Below are positions 509-13,422 of a DNA stretch of 25,730 nucleotides, one piece after another. The notes below the pieces were generated by a model that was not told the origin of the DNA, ran no database searches, and saw only the letters and a program-made list of their open reading frames with translations. The translations under genes and the position numbers were made by a program. Positions within the stretch are counted from its first letter, which is position 1. The number at the start of each line of letters is the position of its first letter. The DNA lies in IMG/VR virus record IMGVR_UViG_2713896781_000012. One strand, written 5' to 3'. The DNA is from a virus (taxonomy: Duplodnaviria; Heunggongvirae; Uroviricota; Caudoviricetes).

Positions 509-889
509 TTACGTACGTAAACTACTAAATGATATTTGTGAGAATGCCACCGAGTGTTCAAAACACCACCACAAATACATAAGAAAACTTCAACAAATAA
601 CCAATAAATAATTTCGGATGTTATTTTTAGTTTGTTTAAATTAAGCTAAAGAATTATAGACTACTTATAAATAAGTGCCATTAATATAAATTAGCTAATA
701 GATTTATTTTTGTTCAAACAAGAGCCATGAATAGGATTAGATAGAAAAGGTTCAGATAAAAATAGAGATCTACTTCACAAATTAAATGAGAAACTAAAAC
801 TTACATCTTGAAATAATCACATTGATTAGATGAATATTTATCGCGCAGTGACATCATTTTTTTATAATAGTTCAAAAAAAGGGCGTACA

Positions 890-1972
890 ATGAAAAAATT
901 AACAGTGGCAATTTCTGCTGTAGCTGCATCAGTACTGATGGCGATGTCTGCTCAGGCAGCTGAAATTTATAATAAAGACAGTAACAAGCTGGATCTATAC
1001 GGGAAAGTTAATGCCAAGCACTACTTCTCCTCTAATGATGCAGATGATGGTGATACTACTTATGCCCGTCTTGGCTTCAAAGGTGAAACCCAAATCAACG
1101 ATCAACTGACTGGGTTCGGTCAGTGGGAATATGACTTCAAAGGCAACCGTGCTGAATCTCAAGGTTCTTCCAAAGACAAAACCCGTCTTGCATTTGCAGG
1201 CCTGAAATTTGGTGATTACGGCTCAATCGATTACGGCCGTAACTTCGGTGTAGCATACGACATCGGTGCGTGGACTGACGTCCTGCCAGAATTCGGTGGT
1301 GACACTTGGACTCAAACCGACGTGTTCATGACTCAACGTGCAACTGGTGTTGCAACTTATCGTAACAACGACTTCTTTGGTCTGGTCGATGGCCTGAACT
1401 TTGCTGCTCAGTATCAGGGTAAAAATGACCGCACTGACGTAGCTGAAGCCAATGGTGATGGTTTCGGTTTCTCCACTACTTATGAGTATGAAGGATTCGG
1501 CGTGGGTGCAACCTATGCTAAATCAGATCGCACTGACGGTCAGGTCGCCTATGGTAAGAGCAAATTCAATGCCTCCGGCAAAAATGCGGAAGTATGGGCT
1601 GCAGGCCTGAAATATGATGCGAACAATATCTATCTGGCTACCACATATTCTGAAACTCAGAATATGACCGTTTTTGGTAATAACCATATTGCAAACAAAG
1701 CACAAAACTTTGAAGCAGTAGCACAATATCAGTTTGACTTCGGTCTGCGCCCATCTGTTGCTTACCTTCAGTCAAAAGGTAAAGACCTTGGTGTTCATGG
1801 TGACCGAGACTTAGTCAAGTATGTCGATGTCGGTGCTACTTACTACTTTAATAAAAACATGTCCACTTTTGTTGATTACAAAATCAACTTAATTGACGAT
1901 AGTAAGTTTACCAAAACAGCTGGTATTGATACCGACGACATCGTCGCTGTAGGTCTGGTTTATCAGTTCTAA
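890..1972 (+). CDS. nmpC: Outer-membrane general porin, OmpC/OmpF family (prophage NmpC/Lc type)
   Basis: ATG at 890 preceded by a purine-rich stretch; signal peptide [23 protein letters not shown] then [16 protein letters not shown]; C-terminal ...VGLVYQF typical of porins. The in-frame upstream part of ORF 830..1972 is probably not translated. Confidence 0.9.
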
Positions 1973-8824: not shown

Positions 8825-9531
8825 CATCGCTGCCAACCAATAACCTGAAATAACCCCATTTTCGGGTGATACCAGCGAGTCCCTCGCGGTTCTGCTTCCT
8901 CCATAACCCGATAAAAAGCAGCCATAAACGGTTCCACAGCAACAATTGCGCGACGTGACAACAATCCGTCCGGCGTCATGAACTCATGTGTGTCTGTAGG
9001 AATTTGATAGGCGTTCACCAGATTGCGGCATTTATCATCTGACAAACCGGTTTTTGCTTTCAGTTGGCGATATCCGGCATAGCCCTCACGAATAGTGCCC
9101 TTTTTAATTTGCTCGACTGTTTCAGCAACGTGGCTGACTTTTTCTTCCACCTGAGTGATCCGTTTCTGTTGGCGAACGGCTTCAAGAGCCATCGCGGCAA
9201 CCATTTCGATTTCGCTCATTGGCTTACGGATCTGTTCTTCCAGTTCGCGCCAGCGATCTACCAGGCGAGCTGTGAATTCAGGACAGAGCTGTGCGACGAC
9301 AATGATGCTGTCGCGCTTACCTCGTTCACCTTCGAATACATACGCGCTAGAAAATCGGCGAGGCCCAAGTGATTGTTTATTCTCAATTTCCACAGTCTGT
9401 GGAAATTGGATGATTCCCTTTTTAGCCAGTGTTTCAATAGTTCTCTTAACACTATCTGGTCGGCTTCCCACCAACTCTGCGATCTCAACGCTGGTCATGG
9501 ATGCTTTGCCGTTAAAAATTGCGGTGTTCAT
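8824..9531 (-). CDS. Phage regulatory / antirepressor-like protein (Rha/ORF6N-like N-terminus), in the cII position
   Basis: 235 aa; N-terminal NGKASMTSVEIAELVGSRPDSVKRTIETL resembles the Rha/ORF6N DNA-binding motif. ATG at 9531 with AGGAGA RBS, ATGA overlap with the Cro-like gene. Confidence 0.45.
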   Translation of the reverse strand: MNTAIFNGKASMTSVEIAELVGSRPDSVKRTIETLAKKGIIQFPQTVEIENKQSLGPRRFSSAYVFEGERGKRDSIIVVAQLCPEFTARLVDRWRELEEQIRKPMSEIEMVAAMALEAVRQQKRITQVEEKVSHVAETVEQIKKGTIREGYAGYRQLKAKTGLSDDKCRNLVNAYQIPTDTHEFMTPDGLLSRRAIVAVEPFMAAFYRVMEEAEPRGTRWYHPKMGLFQVIGWQR

Positions 9532-9755
9532 TGTTGGTCTCCTGTGGGCTTGTCATCTTCTGTATTCGCTAGACTTGGGTGTGTATATGGAATGCTCGGA
9601 TCCAGATGACAAAGAATGGCAACATCCTCCGGAACACCTCGCGTTTTCCACTTTCCAACACCTTGACTGCCACGAGGCCTTCCTTTCTTTGGGAACCTGC
9701 GACCAATAGCGGCATTGGTTTTAAATTGAATTTTTAATATTTCATAAAGGGTCAT
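9528..9755 (-). CDS. Cro-like DNA-binding regulator (YdaS-like)
   Basis: 75 aa, divergent from the repressor gene; GSQGVGKWKTRGVPEDVAILCHL resembles the YdaS-type Cro motif from memory. Confidence 0.5.
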   Translation of the reverse strand: MTLYEILKIQFKTNAAIGRRFPKKGRPRGSQGVGKWKTRGVPEDVAILCHLDPSIPYTHPSLANTEDDKPTGDQQ

Positions 9756-9866
9756 TCTTTAGTCTCACGCCAGATACTTTGTTATCCAACGATGTTAACC
9801 ACAGGAACCCAAAGTATCAAGAAATTCTGTTACTTTAGTATCAACAGCCATGAGAGGAGAAGAAAA
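9756..9866. promoter_or_regulatory. Divergent promoter/operator region between the Cro-like and cI-like genes (OR-like)
   Basis: Three related sites: ATACTTTGTTATCCAAC (9774-9790), CCAAAGTATCAAG (9809-9821), TTACTTTAGTATCAAC (9831-9846), sharing GTATCAA/ACTTT half-sites. Confidence 0.5.
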
Positions 9867-10523
9867 ATGAAGTCTTTAGGTGAACGTCTCATCAACGCAC
9901 GGCAAAAAGCTGGGTTAACACAAGATGCGTTGGCTAAAAAAGCTGGGGTCACCAGAGTTGCAATAAGTAAAGCCGAGCAAGGCCTTACAAAAAGTTTCAA
10001 CGGTGACACCCTTTTTAAAGTTGCAGCTGCACTGCGGTGTTCACCGCAGTGGCTTCAGAACGGAGATGAAAAAGATAAGCATTGGGAAAATAATGTTAAG
10101 AGCTGCCCACAGAGAGACACAGCACACTCTTACCCTGTAATTAACTGGGTTCAGGCAGGATTATTCGCAACTTCTGGTGATGACTACAACATGTATGATC
10201 AGGATAATTGGAGGCATTCTGTAAAATACGCTGGTGAGAGGGGGTTCTGGCTGGAAGTGCACGGAGACTCAATGACTTCGCCCGTAGGAATAACATTTCC
10301 TGAAGGAATGTCGATCCTTGTCAACCCAGATAAAGAAGTTTTTTCAGGGTGTTACGTCATCGCCAGAAAAAAATCTACCAATGAAGCAACATTCAAAAAA
10401 TATATTTCTGACATGGGAAAGGCGTTTCTAAAGCCCCTTAATCCACAATATCCAATCATAGAAATGGACAATGATTGCGAAATAGTAGGTGTTGTGGTTG
10501 ATGCCAGGTGGGATATTTTCTGA
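9867..10523 (+). CDS. Prophage repressor, cI/LexA-like (HTH-XRE plus S24 peptidase domain)
   Basis: ATG at 9867 with GAGAGGAGAAG RBS (ORF-track start 9792 is upstream and in frame). N-terminal HTH (LTQDALAKKAGVTRVAISKAEQG); C-terminal S24 signature HGDSM...ARKKS and a QAG putative autocleavage site. Confidence 0.85.
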   Translation: MKSLGERLINARQKAGLTQDALAKKAGVTRVAISKAEQGLTKSFNGDTLFKVAAALRCSPQWLQNGDEKDKHWENNVKSCPQRDTAHSYPVINWVQAGLFATSGDDYNMYDQDNWRHSVKYAGERGFWLEVHGDSMTSPVGITFPEGMSILVNPDKEVFSGCYVIARKKSTNEATFKKYISDMGKAFLKPLNPQYPIIEMDNDCEIVGVVVDARWDIF

Positions 10524-10626
10524 CCAGACACAAAACACAAAAAGAAACCAAAGTATCAAAAATCACTTGCCACACCTTGATACCTTAGTTACCATAAAAC
10601 AAAGTTCGTAACTGAGGTATCATCTC
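10524..10626. promoter_or_regulatory. Candidate OL/pL-like operator-promoter region
   Basis: CCAAAGTATCAA at 10548-10559 is identical to the 12-mer at 9809-9820; further TTGATAC / GTATCA half-sites at 10577-10583 and 10616-10621. Confidence 0.45.
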
Positions 10627-11130
10627 ATGATCAATAAAGCTACAACTCTTGACTGTCTCGAAGAACTGAAAAACCTCGGCAGCCTCATTACACTAATAGC
10701 AAAAGCAACACCTGATGCTACGCTCTCTAGCGATATAGAGTCATGCGCAGGACTGGCATGGGATATGACAAATAGCATATCCAGAAAGCTATCGTCAGCA
10801 ATGCTTTTACAGAACAAAAATTCTGCAATCAACAACCGTCTTTGCACCCAACGCGAAGCCTGCGGCTTAACAACCGCCGAACTCGCCAGGCTGCTCGATC
10901 TCGATGAAGAAATTATCATCCAGTGGGAGAGCGGAGAGTATGAACCAACTATCAGTATGCTTATCCCACTGGCAAATATTCTTGGCTGCGATCCGATGTG
11001 GCTGTTAACTGGTGAGGTTACTCCTCCGGAGCAACCAAAAAGTGAGGAGCAGCAACACCATGACGCATCTCAACAAGTTTGCCCCTTATCTCGCGAAGCT
11101 CTTCTACGGAAGAACCAATACCAATGGTGA
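10627..11130 (+). CDS. HTH-XRE domain protein, first gene of the leftward early operon
   Basis: 167 aa; C-terminal half has a helix-turn-helix (LTTAELARLLDLDEEIIIQWESGEYEPTISMLIPLANILGCDPMWLLTG). Not arginine-rich, so not an N-like antiterminator. Confidence 0.6.
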   Translation: MINKATTLDCLEELKNLGSLITLIAKATPDATLSSDIESCAGLAWDMTNSISRKLSSAMLLQNKNSAINNRLCTQREACGLTTAELARLLDLDEEIIIQWESGEYEPTISMLIPLANILGCDPMWLLTGEVTPPEQPKSEEQQHHDASQQVCPLSREALLRKNQYQW

Positions 11131-11258
11131 CATAATCGCCGCTTCGCCCCTCAAGGTACATGCGAACATTTTTATCAATCATTGCGGAAACAGTCTCAAT
11201 ATGAAAACACTTCTGAGACTCGCTATATAGCAGAACATATAAGTCAGCTGAGGAAACC

Positions 11259-11624
11259 ATGAAAAAGTTCGAAAACATAACTGTTCTCCATGTTGATGAC
11301 TTTGATTATACAAACCCGGAACTTCTCCCGGAGGTTGTAAAGGCAATAGATGTTGCCGATATAGTGATTAGAGAAAAGAGAATTGTCAAAAACAGGCTCG
11401 TATGCACTTCAGGAGCAATGACAGAAACAACCTCACAGCAAGATAATTACGAAGGCATTTGCCTGGAGCCTGATTCATTTGCGGTAAATGTTTATCATTT
11501 ATTGCATGCAACACAGGTATTACATATGTCCAGTAATCACGAAACGAAAACACTCGGCAGCGAAATTCTGAGTTTTGCATGTGAGTATACAAAAGCTGCT
11601 GCCGAAAAAGAATTAGCGCAATAA
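11259..11624 (+). CDS. Hypothetical protein, 121 aa
   Basis: ATG with GAGGAA RBS 4-5 nt upstream; GC about 40%, lower than neighbouring phage genes. Confidence 0.55.
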   Translation: MKKFENITVLHVDDFDYTNPELLPEVVKAIDVADIVIREKRIVKNRLVCTSGAMTETTSQQDNYEGICLEPDSFAVNVYHLLHATQVLHMSSNHETKTLGSEILSFACEYTKAAAEKELAQ

Positions 11625-11818
11625 CAACAAATATGCCCTGAACGTTTATTGCGGTTTTATCGCCGGGGATTGTTACAACCTTAAACCACAGGAGGCTTTA
11701 TTGTGACTTTTATAAAGAATATGGCATCACACAAGACCGCCTGCCTTATTGCACAATACGGTGAAAATTACATGCATATTGCCTGCTTATTTCTGCGTAA
11801 AGCATACGGGAGATAATA

Positions 11819-12001
11819 ATGCATCAGAAAACAGCAGAACACGAACAAACCAGAATATTGCTGACCATCAAAAACGGGAAAGTAATATTCATTCGCCATG
11901 TTCATGACGATGAACTTGTAGGAACTCTTTCAACATTCCTGTTTATTGCAGAAAGGGCAGGATATGACGTTATTGCACCAGCAGATGAAGATGAGGAATA
12001 A
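11819..12001 (+). CDS. Hypothetical small protein, 60 aa, acidic C-terminus
   Basis: ATG with GGGAGA RBS; followed 5 nt later by the next gene; preceded by a 37-codon GTG-initiated ORF (11703-11816) with AGGAGG RBS. Confidence 0.5.
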   Translation: MHQKTAEHEQTRILLTIKNGKVIFIRHVHDDELVGTLSTFLFIAERAGYDVIAPADEDEE

Positions 12002-12006
12002 ATATC

Positions 12007-12588
12007 ATGCAATACGATGAATTCCAGGCTGAAGCAACAGCCAATGGTATACGAACTGGCAGTATGACGATTGATTATCACGACGCCATACGTCGTCTGG
12101 ATGCCGGAGAATTCGATACTCCTAATGTGCGAGGTTTACGTATCCTTCAGTGTCTGGCGCAAGCCGACGAAGCAGGATTACTGGGTAAACTTCCGGTTGA
12201 GATGAAGGTTGCTCAGTGGCGATGGTTGTATGTGACGACATTCATCAACGAAGAAGAAGACAAGAACGGCACAATTGATATCCTGAATGAACACGGAACA
12301 ATTGAACACGCCGTGGTATATAACGGGATGTATGGGTTTATGACGATATATCCCGGCCCCATTCGATTTGCCTTACAACAGTATATTGAATGGAATTTAA
12401 TTCAAAAATACGGCGAAGCTGAAGGAATGGGAAGAGCGCTGTTTCTTTATCAGAAAATGCTCACTACTTCCCCTGATAAAGGTTTCATTCTTTCAGATAT
12501 GGGTCGAGAAGGGCTTGAAATCCTTCTGGATGAAATTATTAACGAAATGAATACTCATGGCATGCAATCCGAAACAGATATTAAGTAA
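12007..12588 (+). CDS. Hypothetical protein, 193 aa
   Basis: Long ORF in the same AT-rich operon; no family recognised. Confidence 0.6.
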   Translation: MQYDEFQAEATANGIRTGSMTIDYHDAIRRLDAGEFDTPNVRGLRILQCLAQADEAGLLGKLPVEMKVAQWRWLYVTTFINEEEDKNGTIDILNEHGTIEHAVVYNGMYGFMTIYPGPIRFALQQYIEWNLIQKYGEAEGMGRALFLYQKMLTTSPDKGFILSDMGREGLEILLDEIINEMNTHGMQSETDIK

Positions 12589-12598
12589 AAGGGACCAC

Positions 12599-12847
12599 AT
12601 GACCGTTATCGAGTATATCCAGGAAAATCCAGATTGCAGTAGAGAAGATATATCCCTCGCACTTGGAAGAAGCGCAACTTCTATCAGTAATGAATTATCA
12701 CGGTTATTGTGGAATGGGTTAATAGTACGAACTGGAGAAAAAAACAAAACGATTCTGTACTGCGTAAACAATCTGCCGTTTGGATACAGCAATCCCCTAA
12801 GTGTTATGTTCAACCAGTTACTTAAACAGGTAAGAAATGGCAACTGA
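12599..12847 (+). CDS. Putative winged-helix DNA-binding protein, 82 aa
   Basis: ATG at 12599 just after the upstream stop (ORF-track start 12557 overlaps the previous gene); REDISLALGRSATSISNELSRLLWNGLIVR resembles a winged-helix recognition region. Confidence 0.5.
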   Translation: MTVIEYIQENPDCSREDISLALGRSATSISNELSRLLWNGLIVRTGEKNKTILYCVNNLPFGYSNPLSVMFNQLLKQVRNGN

Positions 12848-13154
12848 CTCACAACTAACCATAGAAACGGCCCTGAATGTCGGCCTGGCGCTCCTTGGTT
12901 ATTTTTACATCGTGTTCTGCAGCGGACGGTGGCTGTCGCTGTTGTTCCTGAAAAAATGGAATAAACGCCGTAAGCAGGATGAACGCCAGAAGGCAATGAA
13001 TGCGTTTTCCGAAGCCTTCGGAATTGACGGCATGGAACCAGGGGATCCAGCTCGCGCAATCAGCAGAGGGGGTGTAGTAATCCTTGTATATCGGAGTGAA
13101 GAGAAAAATGACGATCACAAAACAACGAGTAGAAAAAATCATATATCGCCATGA
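12837..13154 (+). CDS. Hypothetical membrane protein, 105 aa
   Basis: One predicted transmembrane helix (LNVGLALLGYFYIVFCSGRWLSLLFL) followed by a basic stretch; overlaps the upstream gene by 11 nt. Confidence 0.45.
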   Translation: MATDSQLTIETALNVGLALLGYFYIVFCSGRWLSLLFLKKWNKRRKQDERQKAMNAFSEAFGIDGMEPGDPARAISRGGVVILVYRSEEKNDDHKTTSRKNHISP

Positions 13155-13422
13155 AATGGGACTGAACAGCGATGTCACTGCCGAAGAGGTTTATGACCTG
13201 GCTGTACTGGCGCTGAATTTATCAAATATCGCAAACCTGAAGCGATACGAGCTTGATATGGATGGTTGCGACTCGTGCGGTCAGGATTGTGGCGCAGATA
13301 TGACTGAAGATCCTGATGGTGATTATGTCCTGTTTGATGACGTGGTTAAGTTGTTTGAATTTGATACAACCACTCAAAAGTTAGAAATCCCGGCAAAGGA
13401 GGCTGCCAGTGAGCAAGATTGA
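13108..13422 (+). CDS. Hypothetical acidic protein, 104 aa (start uncertain)
   Basis: ATG at 13108 with GGAG/GAGA upstream (ORF-track start 13084 is TTG); alternative ATG at 13156 would avoid a 47-nt overlap. Confidence 0.45.
   Translation: MTITKQRVEKIIYRHEMGLNSDVTAEEVYDLAVLALNLSNIANLKRYELDMDGCDSCGQDCGADMTEDPDGDYVLFDDVVKLFEFDTTTQKLEIPAKEAASEQD

Follow-up and report, generated by a model that had tools for sequence, protein, structure and literature searches.

The three small genes f37, f60 and f193, coding for a 37-residue micro-protein, a 60-aa acidic protein and a 193-aa protein, represent, as judged by sequence comparison, a compact version, with three genes, of the conserved accessory cassette located in the early-left operon (cI to int) of temperate enterobacterial phages. 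They were studied in a stretch of DNA of 25,730 nucleotides, hereafter the window, and all positions refer to it (Table 1). The trio consists of uncharacterised early accessory genes, a familiar class, now with a clearer anatomy, and the new elements are a hidden micro-protein gene, the conserved cassette to which it belongs and a covarying dyad at the 5' edge of that cassette. Regarding their role, we see about an even chance that the three products are accessory proteins expressed on induction and acting by binding other proteins.

The trio is moderately interesting since it is common, is present in Stx phages and is structurally unlike anything solved; the cassette proteins are all unnamed, and no solved structure or detectable fold relative exists for any of them. 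If the trio modulates induction, host physiology or immunity, it would bear on the switch of Stx and related prophages to lytic growth, and its conserved order, together with the dyad, makes it a small and defined experimental target.

Table 1. Features of the early-left region of the window, and cassette families found in related phages
Feature	Position	Strand	Remarks
Operators, OR	9773-9786 and ~9804-9817		one mismatch each; read from scan output
Operator, OR	9829-9842		exact match; between cro-like gene and cI
cI, LexA-family S24 repressor	9867-10523	+	RefSeq call
Operators, OL equivalent	10544-10557, 10579-10592, 10608-10621	+	exact pattern matches
Promoter-like site, PL equivalent	10567-10595	+	TTGCCA, 17 nt, TACCAT
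167-aa HTH_3 protein gene	10627-11130	+	first PL gene
121-aa protein gene	11259-11624	+	
Non-coding gap	11625-11702	+	78 nt, between 121-aa gene and f37
Dyad/hairpin	11652-11665	+	4-bp, CGGT-TTTATC-GCCG, then GGGATT
f37, 37-codon gene	11703-11816	+	GTG 11703, stop 11814-11816
f60, 60-aa acidic protein gene	11819-12001	+	phrog_340
f193, 193-aa protein gene	12007-12588	+	phrog_1515
Small winged-helix (wHTH) protein gene	12599-12847	+	
DUF4752, two Ea22-like genes, DUF551, DUF4222, xis, int	3' of wHTH gene, in this order	+	
int	16194-17507	+	
S24-only 'CI-like' protein			relatives only; 128 aa; phrog_6201; Peptidase_S24, E 3e-7
f120			relatives only; phrog_1737
ParE-like			relatives only; PF24732, E 1e-19
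f74			end of cassette in relatives; phrog_1001

Prophage context and transcriptional setting

The chromosome of Escherichia coli NMBU_W05E18 contains a stretch 100% identical to the window, a phiP27-like prophage adjoining a DUF72 gene that we take as yecE. The nearest phages are PhiR49_2 (99.2%), a set of Stx1- and Stx2-converting phages (~92-93%) and phiP27 (79.7%). Records of related Stx phages carry names after yecE insertion. In the window, the prophage comprises early-region genes only; they start with a partial methyltransferase gene, continue with Q and the replication genes and end with int, and several of them are marked as pseudogenes. A 1.7-kb query around the trio found matches in 324 of 5,426 complete E. 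coli genomes, with at least 80% coverage in 168, and among the 24 phage records matched by the trio region, 19 are Stx1/Stx2-converting phages.

Every gene from 10627 through int lies on the + strand, and the Rha/Ant genes of this lineage are found on the strand opposite to the trio. The 14-bp operator pattern GWWAC-N4-GTWWC has four exact matches in the window, against 0.26 expected, all confined to 9829-9842 (OR) and to a cluster at 10544-10621, just 3' of cI and surrounding a promoter-like site. This classical OR/OL arrangement places the PL equivalent at ~10570-10600, and the site at 10544-10621 is likely to be the start of the early-left transcript carrying the trio, which begins ~1.1 kb downstream on the same strand. 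Consensus scans of the + strand revealed no sigma-70-like promoter in 11450-12270 and no terminator-like site between 10600 and 12900, and a pattern scan of the gap at 11625-11702 found no cI operators. As the trio has no promoter, terminator or operator of its own nearby, it is part of the early-left operon rather than an operon in itself, being the third to fifth genes of a long transcription unit. Thus, the locus shows both marks of a PL operon: a repressor-controlled promoter with multiple operators that also occur at OR, and genes on the xis/int strand with neither terminator nor promoter between, the latter as seen by consensus scans. As a caveat, the scan predicts no terminator 3' of cI either, which leaves room for some expression of the trio in lysogens by read-through from the cI promoter.

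A first-pass annotation of this DNA had instead described a self-contained and compositionally foreign operon, and neither description holds: the genes are embedded in the PL-driven operon with no flanking promoter or terminator, and the whole of 9600-12850 has 42.1% GC, the trio region standing at the 22nd percentile of windows of the same size. The lower GC content that it had noted relative to the Ea22-like genes is roughly correct (41.6% for 11625-12588, compared to 51.2% and 47.9%), but the immediate neighbours are equally AT-rich, with 42.5% in cI, 39.1% in the 121-aa gene and 39.0% in the wHTH gene; therefore, the trio is not a compositional island. Its statement that exo, bet, gam, kil and cIII are absent agrees with the RefSeq annotation of the identical locus, where none of them is found.

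The trio is comparable to the accessory genes of the λ PL operon (kil, cIII, ral and the ea/exo-xis genes), as it is also located between the immunity region and xis/int on the int strand, and is also composed of small and tightly packed genes downstream of a repressor-controlled promoter with three operators. However, it has no detected sequence or fold similarity to any of them, and the operon of the window opens with an HTH regulator, no N homologue having been identified.

The trio and its unannotated micro-protein gene

The three reading frames proposed in the first-pass annotation are real genes on the + strand, as seen by dN/dS values of 0.06-0.22, and their tight linkage is likewise verified, with spacers of 2 nt (f37-f60) and 5 nt (f60-f193). 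Each gene has its own Shine-Dalgarno sequence: the expected AGGAGG is located at 11689-11694, 8 nt upstream of the f37 GTG, and the last two sense codons of f37, GGG AGA, are at the same time the GGGAGA Shine-Dalgarno sequence of f60. RefSeq misses f37 at the identical locus, and some GenBank phage records annotate it. Consequently, the region formerly described as a 195-bp intergenic region (11625-11818), which is intergenic only in RefSeq, is a 78-nt gap followed by a gene.

By its pattern of substitutions, f37 is a real protein gene. Compared to phiP27, it has 17 synonymous and 12 non-synonymous differences, giving a dN/dS of 0.057 in frame (Nei-Gojobori) against 0.73 and 6.7 in the other two frames. 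The 37-codon frame is kept in phiP27, ASU11 and the Stx phages, the start codon being ATG in relatives and GTG in the window. Copies 50-67% identical are found in Fels-1, ENT39118, AsXd-1, EKP1 and other phages, and the family members, which are 35-38 residues long, are strongly conserved, with the consensus MTFIKDKxAY(R/K)xACLxAxxGYxxIAxLYL(R/K)KAYGR. A degenerate DNA pattern for f37 returned 18 stretches, eight of them encoding real f37. Proteins of 119 aa in the f37 cluster were considered as fusions, an interpretation that was rejected, as they are f120-family proteins.

We read the f37 product as two helices joined at a conserved glycine. Pfam includes models for both Kil and cIII, and f37 matches neither of them, having no Pfam (E up to 1), PHROG or NCBIfam family. 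The λ Kil protein is a 47-residue peptide of the PL operon with a helix at residues 4-18, a turn and a second helix at residues 21-38 (PMC11762379). The likeness between f37 and Kil is one of size, shape (as read from the f37 sequence) and position only, and it is used here as an analogy, under which the f37 product, a micro-protein with two helices, would resemble Kil or cIII in kind and would inhibit a host protein.

The f60 and f193 proteins

Both larger genes are under purifying selection, with dN/dS values of 0.22 for f60 and 0.17 for f193 (Nei-Gojobori, window against phiP27). The f60 protein is organised as a β-hairpin and helix core followed by an acidic tail of variable length, the total varying from 60 to 72 aa among the IMG/VR loci in two-residue steps within the D/E tail. 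This tail is missing in phiP27 and ASU11, and thus it is not essential to the family. The only outside link of f60 is to ORF6N antirepressors in PHROG, where residues 5-53 match C-terminal segments of phrog_4792 (E 1e-6; profile positions 199-240 of 268) and phrog_2379 (E 9e-4; positions 127-175 of 187). The ORF6N part of these profiles occupies positions ~8-136, outside the match, and f60 lacks the N-terminal ORF6N/KilA-N domain that defines such antirepressors. When f60 was compared with the antirepressors of the fetched loci, no similarity was found, and the PHROG link was not reproduced there.

In f193, an N-terminal part is followed by a C-terminal f120-like domain (residues ~72-184). Its predicted structure is mixed α/β (pLDDT 86.5, pTM 0.83), and no fold match was found for it; PDB profile searches gave nothing for it, and the best hit in all the PDB sequence-profile searches, none of them credible, was to a designed repeat protein (E 0.002). 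A recurrent Pfam family was rejected as well, none being present across the 16 diverse members scanned. A profile search of 1.84 billion representatives retrieved 101 relatives, mostly of 190-220 aa, which conserve WRW and NG motifs plus a C-terminal P..P..H; the copy in the window has lost this C-terminus at a mosaic junction. Frameshifted variants of f193 and f60 are present in databases.

For none of the three proteins was a Pfam, NCBIfam, PADLOC, PDB or BFVD relative found, which bears out the earlier statement that no recognised family is present. Literature searches by accession, PHROG identifier and phiP27 gene names also found nothing.

A conserved cassette with a constant gene order

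Among 80 IMG/VR relatives found with the 60-aa protein, the order f37-f60-f193 is contiguous in all, with the trio intact in nearly all of the loci and variable genes downstream. The Stx2 phages share only 11647-12565 of the window, which is the gap and the three genes, and the Stx1 phages share it from 11620 onward. This pattern supports the view that the trio moves as one mosaic block. With this block, its unbroken contiguity and the dyad at its 5' side, the first-pass suggestion of a linked unit of uncharacterised genes stands. A survey of co-occurrence, which had also been proposed, gives a divided answer: the genes stay together in all 80 close relatives, but the families separate in distant elements, as described below.

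In a tblastn search against 50,697 phage records, f193 was found in 36, f60 in 38 and f37 in 36, including phages of Klebsiella, Cronobacter, Aeromonas and Salmonella (Fels-1), and 34 of the 36 records holding f193 also hold f60. The cassette was mapped with HMMs of the recurring neighbours in 27 loci and then in eight loci from GTDB representative genomes. Its constant order is S24-only gene, f37, a small gene, f120, f60, ParE-like gene, variable genes, f193, ORF6N antirepressor and f74, and it also holds for these families in distant phages of Salmonella, Citrobacter, Klebsiella, Cronobacter and Aeromonas. The succession f37 ... f60 ... f193 is also kept in CharmingMan, phi467 and Klebsiella phages. 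The stop codon of the S24-only gene overlaps the f37 start in at least eight phages, and in several the ORF6N antirepressor adjoins f193.

In the phiP27/Stx lineage the cassette is shortened: it has neither f120 nor the ParE-like gene, and its three other genes adjoin one another; the lineage of the window also lacks the S24-only gene. Comparison by hhalign shows f120 to be a homologue of residues 72-184 of f193 (probability 90%, E 1.5e-6). Consequently, an f120-like domain comes after f37 in every locus with enough downstream sequence, and in the compact form f193 would provide this domain, for which other phages have a separate gene.

At greater distance each family is found apart from the others. 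The f193 and f74 families occur, with neither f37 nor f60, in integrative elements that also encode AlpA and a P4-type primase; Citrobacter and Salmonella prophages carry f60 with no f193; and several genomes have only f37 and f120. Thus, the three do not form an obligate system, and they may have unrelated functions. The full cassette region has matches in a further 147 of the 5,426 E. coli genomes, with at least 80% coverage in eight, and both forms, the trio and the full cassette, are found together in one E. coli genome. The annotations of the full cassette are limited to hypothetical proteins, 'ParE family toxin-like protein' and 'ORF6N domain-containing protein'.

A covarying dyad at the 5' edge of the cassette

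The gap upstream of f37 contains a short dyad with 4-bp arms and a 6-nt spacer, also present in phiP27, the Stx phages, Fels-1, EKP1, SaltyDalty and an Enterobacteriaceae genome. The letters of its stem differ among phages, being TGCC/GGCA in Fels-1, CGCC/GGCG in EKP1 and CACC/GGTG in SaltyDalty. In 15 distinct phages, 98.3% of the cells pair, compared to 30-55% in slid controls, and three of the four pairs change on both sides (13 cells), a covariation score reached by none of 500 shuffles. The 15 sequences were registered by hand around the dyad, which favours pairing, whereas the compensatory changes are independent of registration; a MAFFT alignment of 12 sequences gave the same covariation picture. 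In phages with an S24-only gene overlapping the start of f37, the dyad is instead found upstream of that gene, and therefore it marks the beginning of the cassette.

The dyad is probably an RNA hairpin or a protein-binding site controlling the processing or expression of the cassette. With its weak 4-bp stem, it may represent an RNA hairpin dependent on a protein, or else a DNA site bound by a phage-specific dimer. Its conservation hints that the cassette is regulated separately and that its expression is perhaps not simply PL-driven. Other readings of the gap were rejected. A promoter of its own finds no sigma-70-like site in the 78 nt, and the dyad loop, which looks like a weak -35, is followed by no -10 at a workable spacing in our own reading. 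A structured RNA spanning the gap has no overall fold (z = 0.39), and no Rfam match was obtained at E up to 1 across 9400-13200.

The boxB element of nut sites has a 5-bp stem and a 5-nt loop. The dyad is likewise short and conserved, shows compensatory changes and lies inside the early-left transcript, but it differs in its 4-bp stem and 6-nt loop, in its single copy and in its distance of 1.1 kb from PL. A second copy, as for the nutL/nutR pair, was considered and rejected, the window having one copy. Moreover, no N-like protein was identified, and the element could equally be a DNA dyad.

Possible functions of the trio

As no catalytic signature is seen in the three proteins, we think that they work by protein binding. 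In the mechanism proposed here, the trio would be silent or nearly so in the lysogen, and once the S24-type repressor is cleaved it would be made together with the rest of the PL operon. Its proteins would then bind other proteins during the switch to lytic growth, f60 possibly being a free-standing copy of a partner-binding domain that elsewhere is the C-terminus of ORF6N-type antirepressors.

A wider proposal, which we regard as possible but rather unlikely, is that the dyad, f37, f120/f193 and f60, plus the ParE-like gene in the full version, constitute one previously undescribed functional module, with the window having its minimal three-gene form. If this is true, the module would be conserved across the temperate phages of Enterobacterales and Aeromonas and in some of their satellite-like elements, and it could be a new system of host takeover, counter-defence or toxin neutralisation.

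The first-pass annotation had named superinfection exclusion, anti-defence and toxin-antitoxin activity as examples of what the operon could do, and none of these receives direct support, with no PADLOC match at E up to 1. The counter-defence reading, in which the trio, made soon after induction or infection, neutralises the immunity of the host or of a co-resident prophage (for example restriction, RecBCD-linked or abortive-infection systems) and the acidic f60 acts as an inhibitor or mimic, is unlikely in our judgement. It is consistent with the position of the trio in the early operon, with the acidic character of f60 and the variable length of its D/E tail, and with a Lar-like restriction-alleviation gene carried by relatives in the same operon; novel folds and mosaic spread are also typical of such genes. 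However, the same tail is missing in two phages, as seen above, so that it is not essential to the family, and a strict gene order across genera is unusual for loci of fast turnover. Moreover, no likeness to known anti-defence proteins was detected, in libraries that are not specific for anti-defence.

Somewhat less probable is that the cassette regulates the lysis-lysogeny switch by tuning the activity of the repressor or antirepressor. In relatives, it opens with the S24-only protein, which resembles the C-terminal domain of cI and is translationally coupled to f37, and the ORF6N antirepressor beside f193 in several phages, as well as the f60 matches to phrog_4792 and phrog_2379, point in the same direction. 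The f60 protein is similar to the C-terminal segments of ORF6N/KilA-N antirepressors, and genes of that type adjoin the cassette in relatives, but it does not have their defining N-terminal ORF6N domain. The absence of the S24-only gene from the lineage of the window and the placement of Rha/Ant on the other strand argue against this role, and so do the P4-like integrative elements, where f193 occurs with no cI-type repressor nearby. In addition, no DNA-binding or repressor-binding motif was identified in the trio.

We regard as improbable a toxin-antitoxin, abortive-infection or superinfection-exclusion module, even in a refined version where loss of the ParE-like toxin gene has left f60, or else the f120-like domain of f193, as an orphan antitoxin now neutralising the ParE-like toxins of other prophages. 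The sole link to toxin-antitoxin systems is the ParE-like gene located between f60 and f193 in relatives, which is absent in the window. There, similar to ParE/RelE type II modules, a small gene (f60 or f120) precedes the ParE-like gene: f60 is directly upstream of it in 10 architectures, with an overlap of ~29 nt in three loci whose coordinates were checked (L009, L018 and L026). RefSeq names this gene as a toxin-like protein of the ParE family, and the E. coli genome with both the compact trio and the full cassette would also suit an orphan antitoxin. Against this, Pfam, NCBIfam and PADLOC reveal no toxin-like gene in the window, and the trio belongs to a long operon rather than to an autoregulated bicistron, with no autoregulated promoter in the consensus scan. 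Neither a ParE/RelE-type toxin gene nor an obligate co-occurrence of antitoxin and toxin, both expected from a type II module, was found, as the ParE-like gene is present with no f60 in five architectures, and f60 with no ParE-like gene in Fels-1 and in the whole phiP27 lineage. Moreover, f60 has no RHH, HTH or Phd-like fold or family match.

Lastly, it is very improbable that the trio has no function at present and is merely being lost with a defective prophage as decaying cargo, as could be suggested by the reduced and pseudogene-bearing prophage of the window and by the frameshifted database variants, because all three genes are under purifying selection, they are intact in nearly all of the 80 IMG/VR loci, and they are present in inducible phages, including phiP27, ASU11 and the Stx phages.

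Organization of the cassette and its 5' edge

The 5' edge of the cassette is marked in 15 distinct phages by a covarying dyad of 4 bp whose arms are 6 nt apart. AT-rich sequence precedes this dyad and GGG follows it; it could act as an RNA hairpin or as a DNA operator. These phages are the window prophage and the related loci L003, L002, L009, L018, L020-L023, L025, L027, L113, L114, L118 and L123. In relatives, a protein of 128 aa annotated as a 'CI-like repressor' consists of an S24 peptidase-like domain alone, and the stop of its gene overlaps the start of the gene for the micro-protein f37; judged from this gene arrangement, the overlap suggests that both products form a functional pair. 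This S24-only gene is absent from the window.

The f120 family, homologous to part of f193 (the largest protein of the compact trio), carries an arginine-rich stretch at its N-terminus, TYRRRILKAALLRHQRKTG, recalling the arginine-rich motifs with which N proteins bind RNA, and this stretch may be related to the dyad element. The stretch of f193 aligned with the f120 N-terminus is not arginine-rich.

Coordinates of the features described in the window and in related loci
Feature	Record	Position
Dyad	window	11652-11665
S24-only gene	L009	3968-4458
S24-only gene	L018	2018-2516
S24-only gene	L019	1719-2209
S24-only gene	L022	3612-4108
S24-only gene	L025	
S24-only gene	L027	
f120 gene (example)	L009	4646-5008
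f60 acidic tail	window	11984-12001
f193 final eight residues	window	12565-12588
f193 family in an integrative element	L006	6001-7584
OR, three 14-bp operators GWWAC-N4-GTWWC	window	9773-9842
OL/PL, three 14-bp operators GWWAC-N4-GTWWC	window	10544-10621
OmpC-like porin gene and truncated DNA methyltransferase gene	window	830-1972 and 101-439
Host flank beyond int	window	17508-25730

Variation in f60 and f193

Among the 80 IMG/VR loci holding the trio (L028-L107), the acidic tail of f60 varies in length, the protein ranging from 60 to 72 aa in two-residue steps, a pattern compatible with slippage of a GAT/GAA/GAG repeat. The f60 proteins of phiP27 and ASU11 are without this tail. Regarding f193, its last eight residues in the window are MQSETDIK, in place of the conserved C-terminus of the family, MPEAPVTH, and this swap coincides with a mosaic junction, where the homology to Stx2 phages ends.

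Integrative elements that carry AlpA and a primase of the P4 type also contain the f193 family, followed there by the f74 protein and a pair of paralogues, each about 120 aa long. In the 336-aa protein P0072, the family is fused to a domain resembling these paralogues.

Immunity region and remaining parts of the window

The two operator clusters define OR and OL/PL of a phiP27-like immunity region. As the long cI ORF, starting at 9792, runs over the OR operators, the start of cI is likely the RefSeq position, 9867.

Several early genes of the prophage are annotated as pseudogenes, namely DUF968 (internal stop), a frameshifted small gene and a partial Ea22-like gene. Its left part holds the porin and methyltransferase genes. 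The host flank has a GC content of 42.7%, low for E. coli.

Cassette genes in other records

Escherichia coli FDAARGOS_1283 (NZ_CP070162.1) carries the compact trio at ~2.81 Mb and the full cassette bearing the ParE-like gene at ~2.40 Mb, in separate prophages. Cassette genes of enterobacterial type also occur on two very short contigs, the 1,550-bp L114, titled as a Chitinophaga MAG, and the 756-bp L115, labelled Kocuria, and in a record of an unrelated taxon, 'Elizabethkingia phage EKP1' (OM284015); these three taxon labels probably reflect contamination or mis-assigned hosts.
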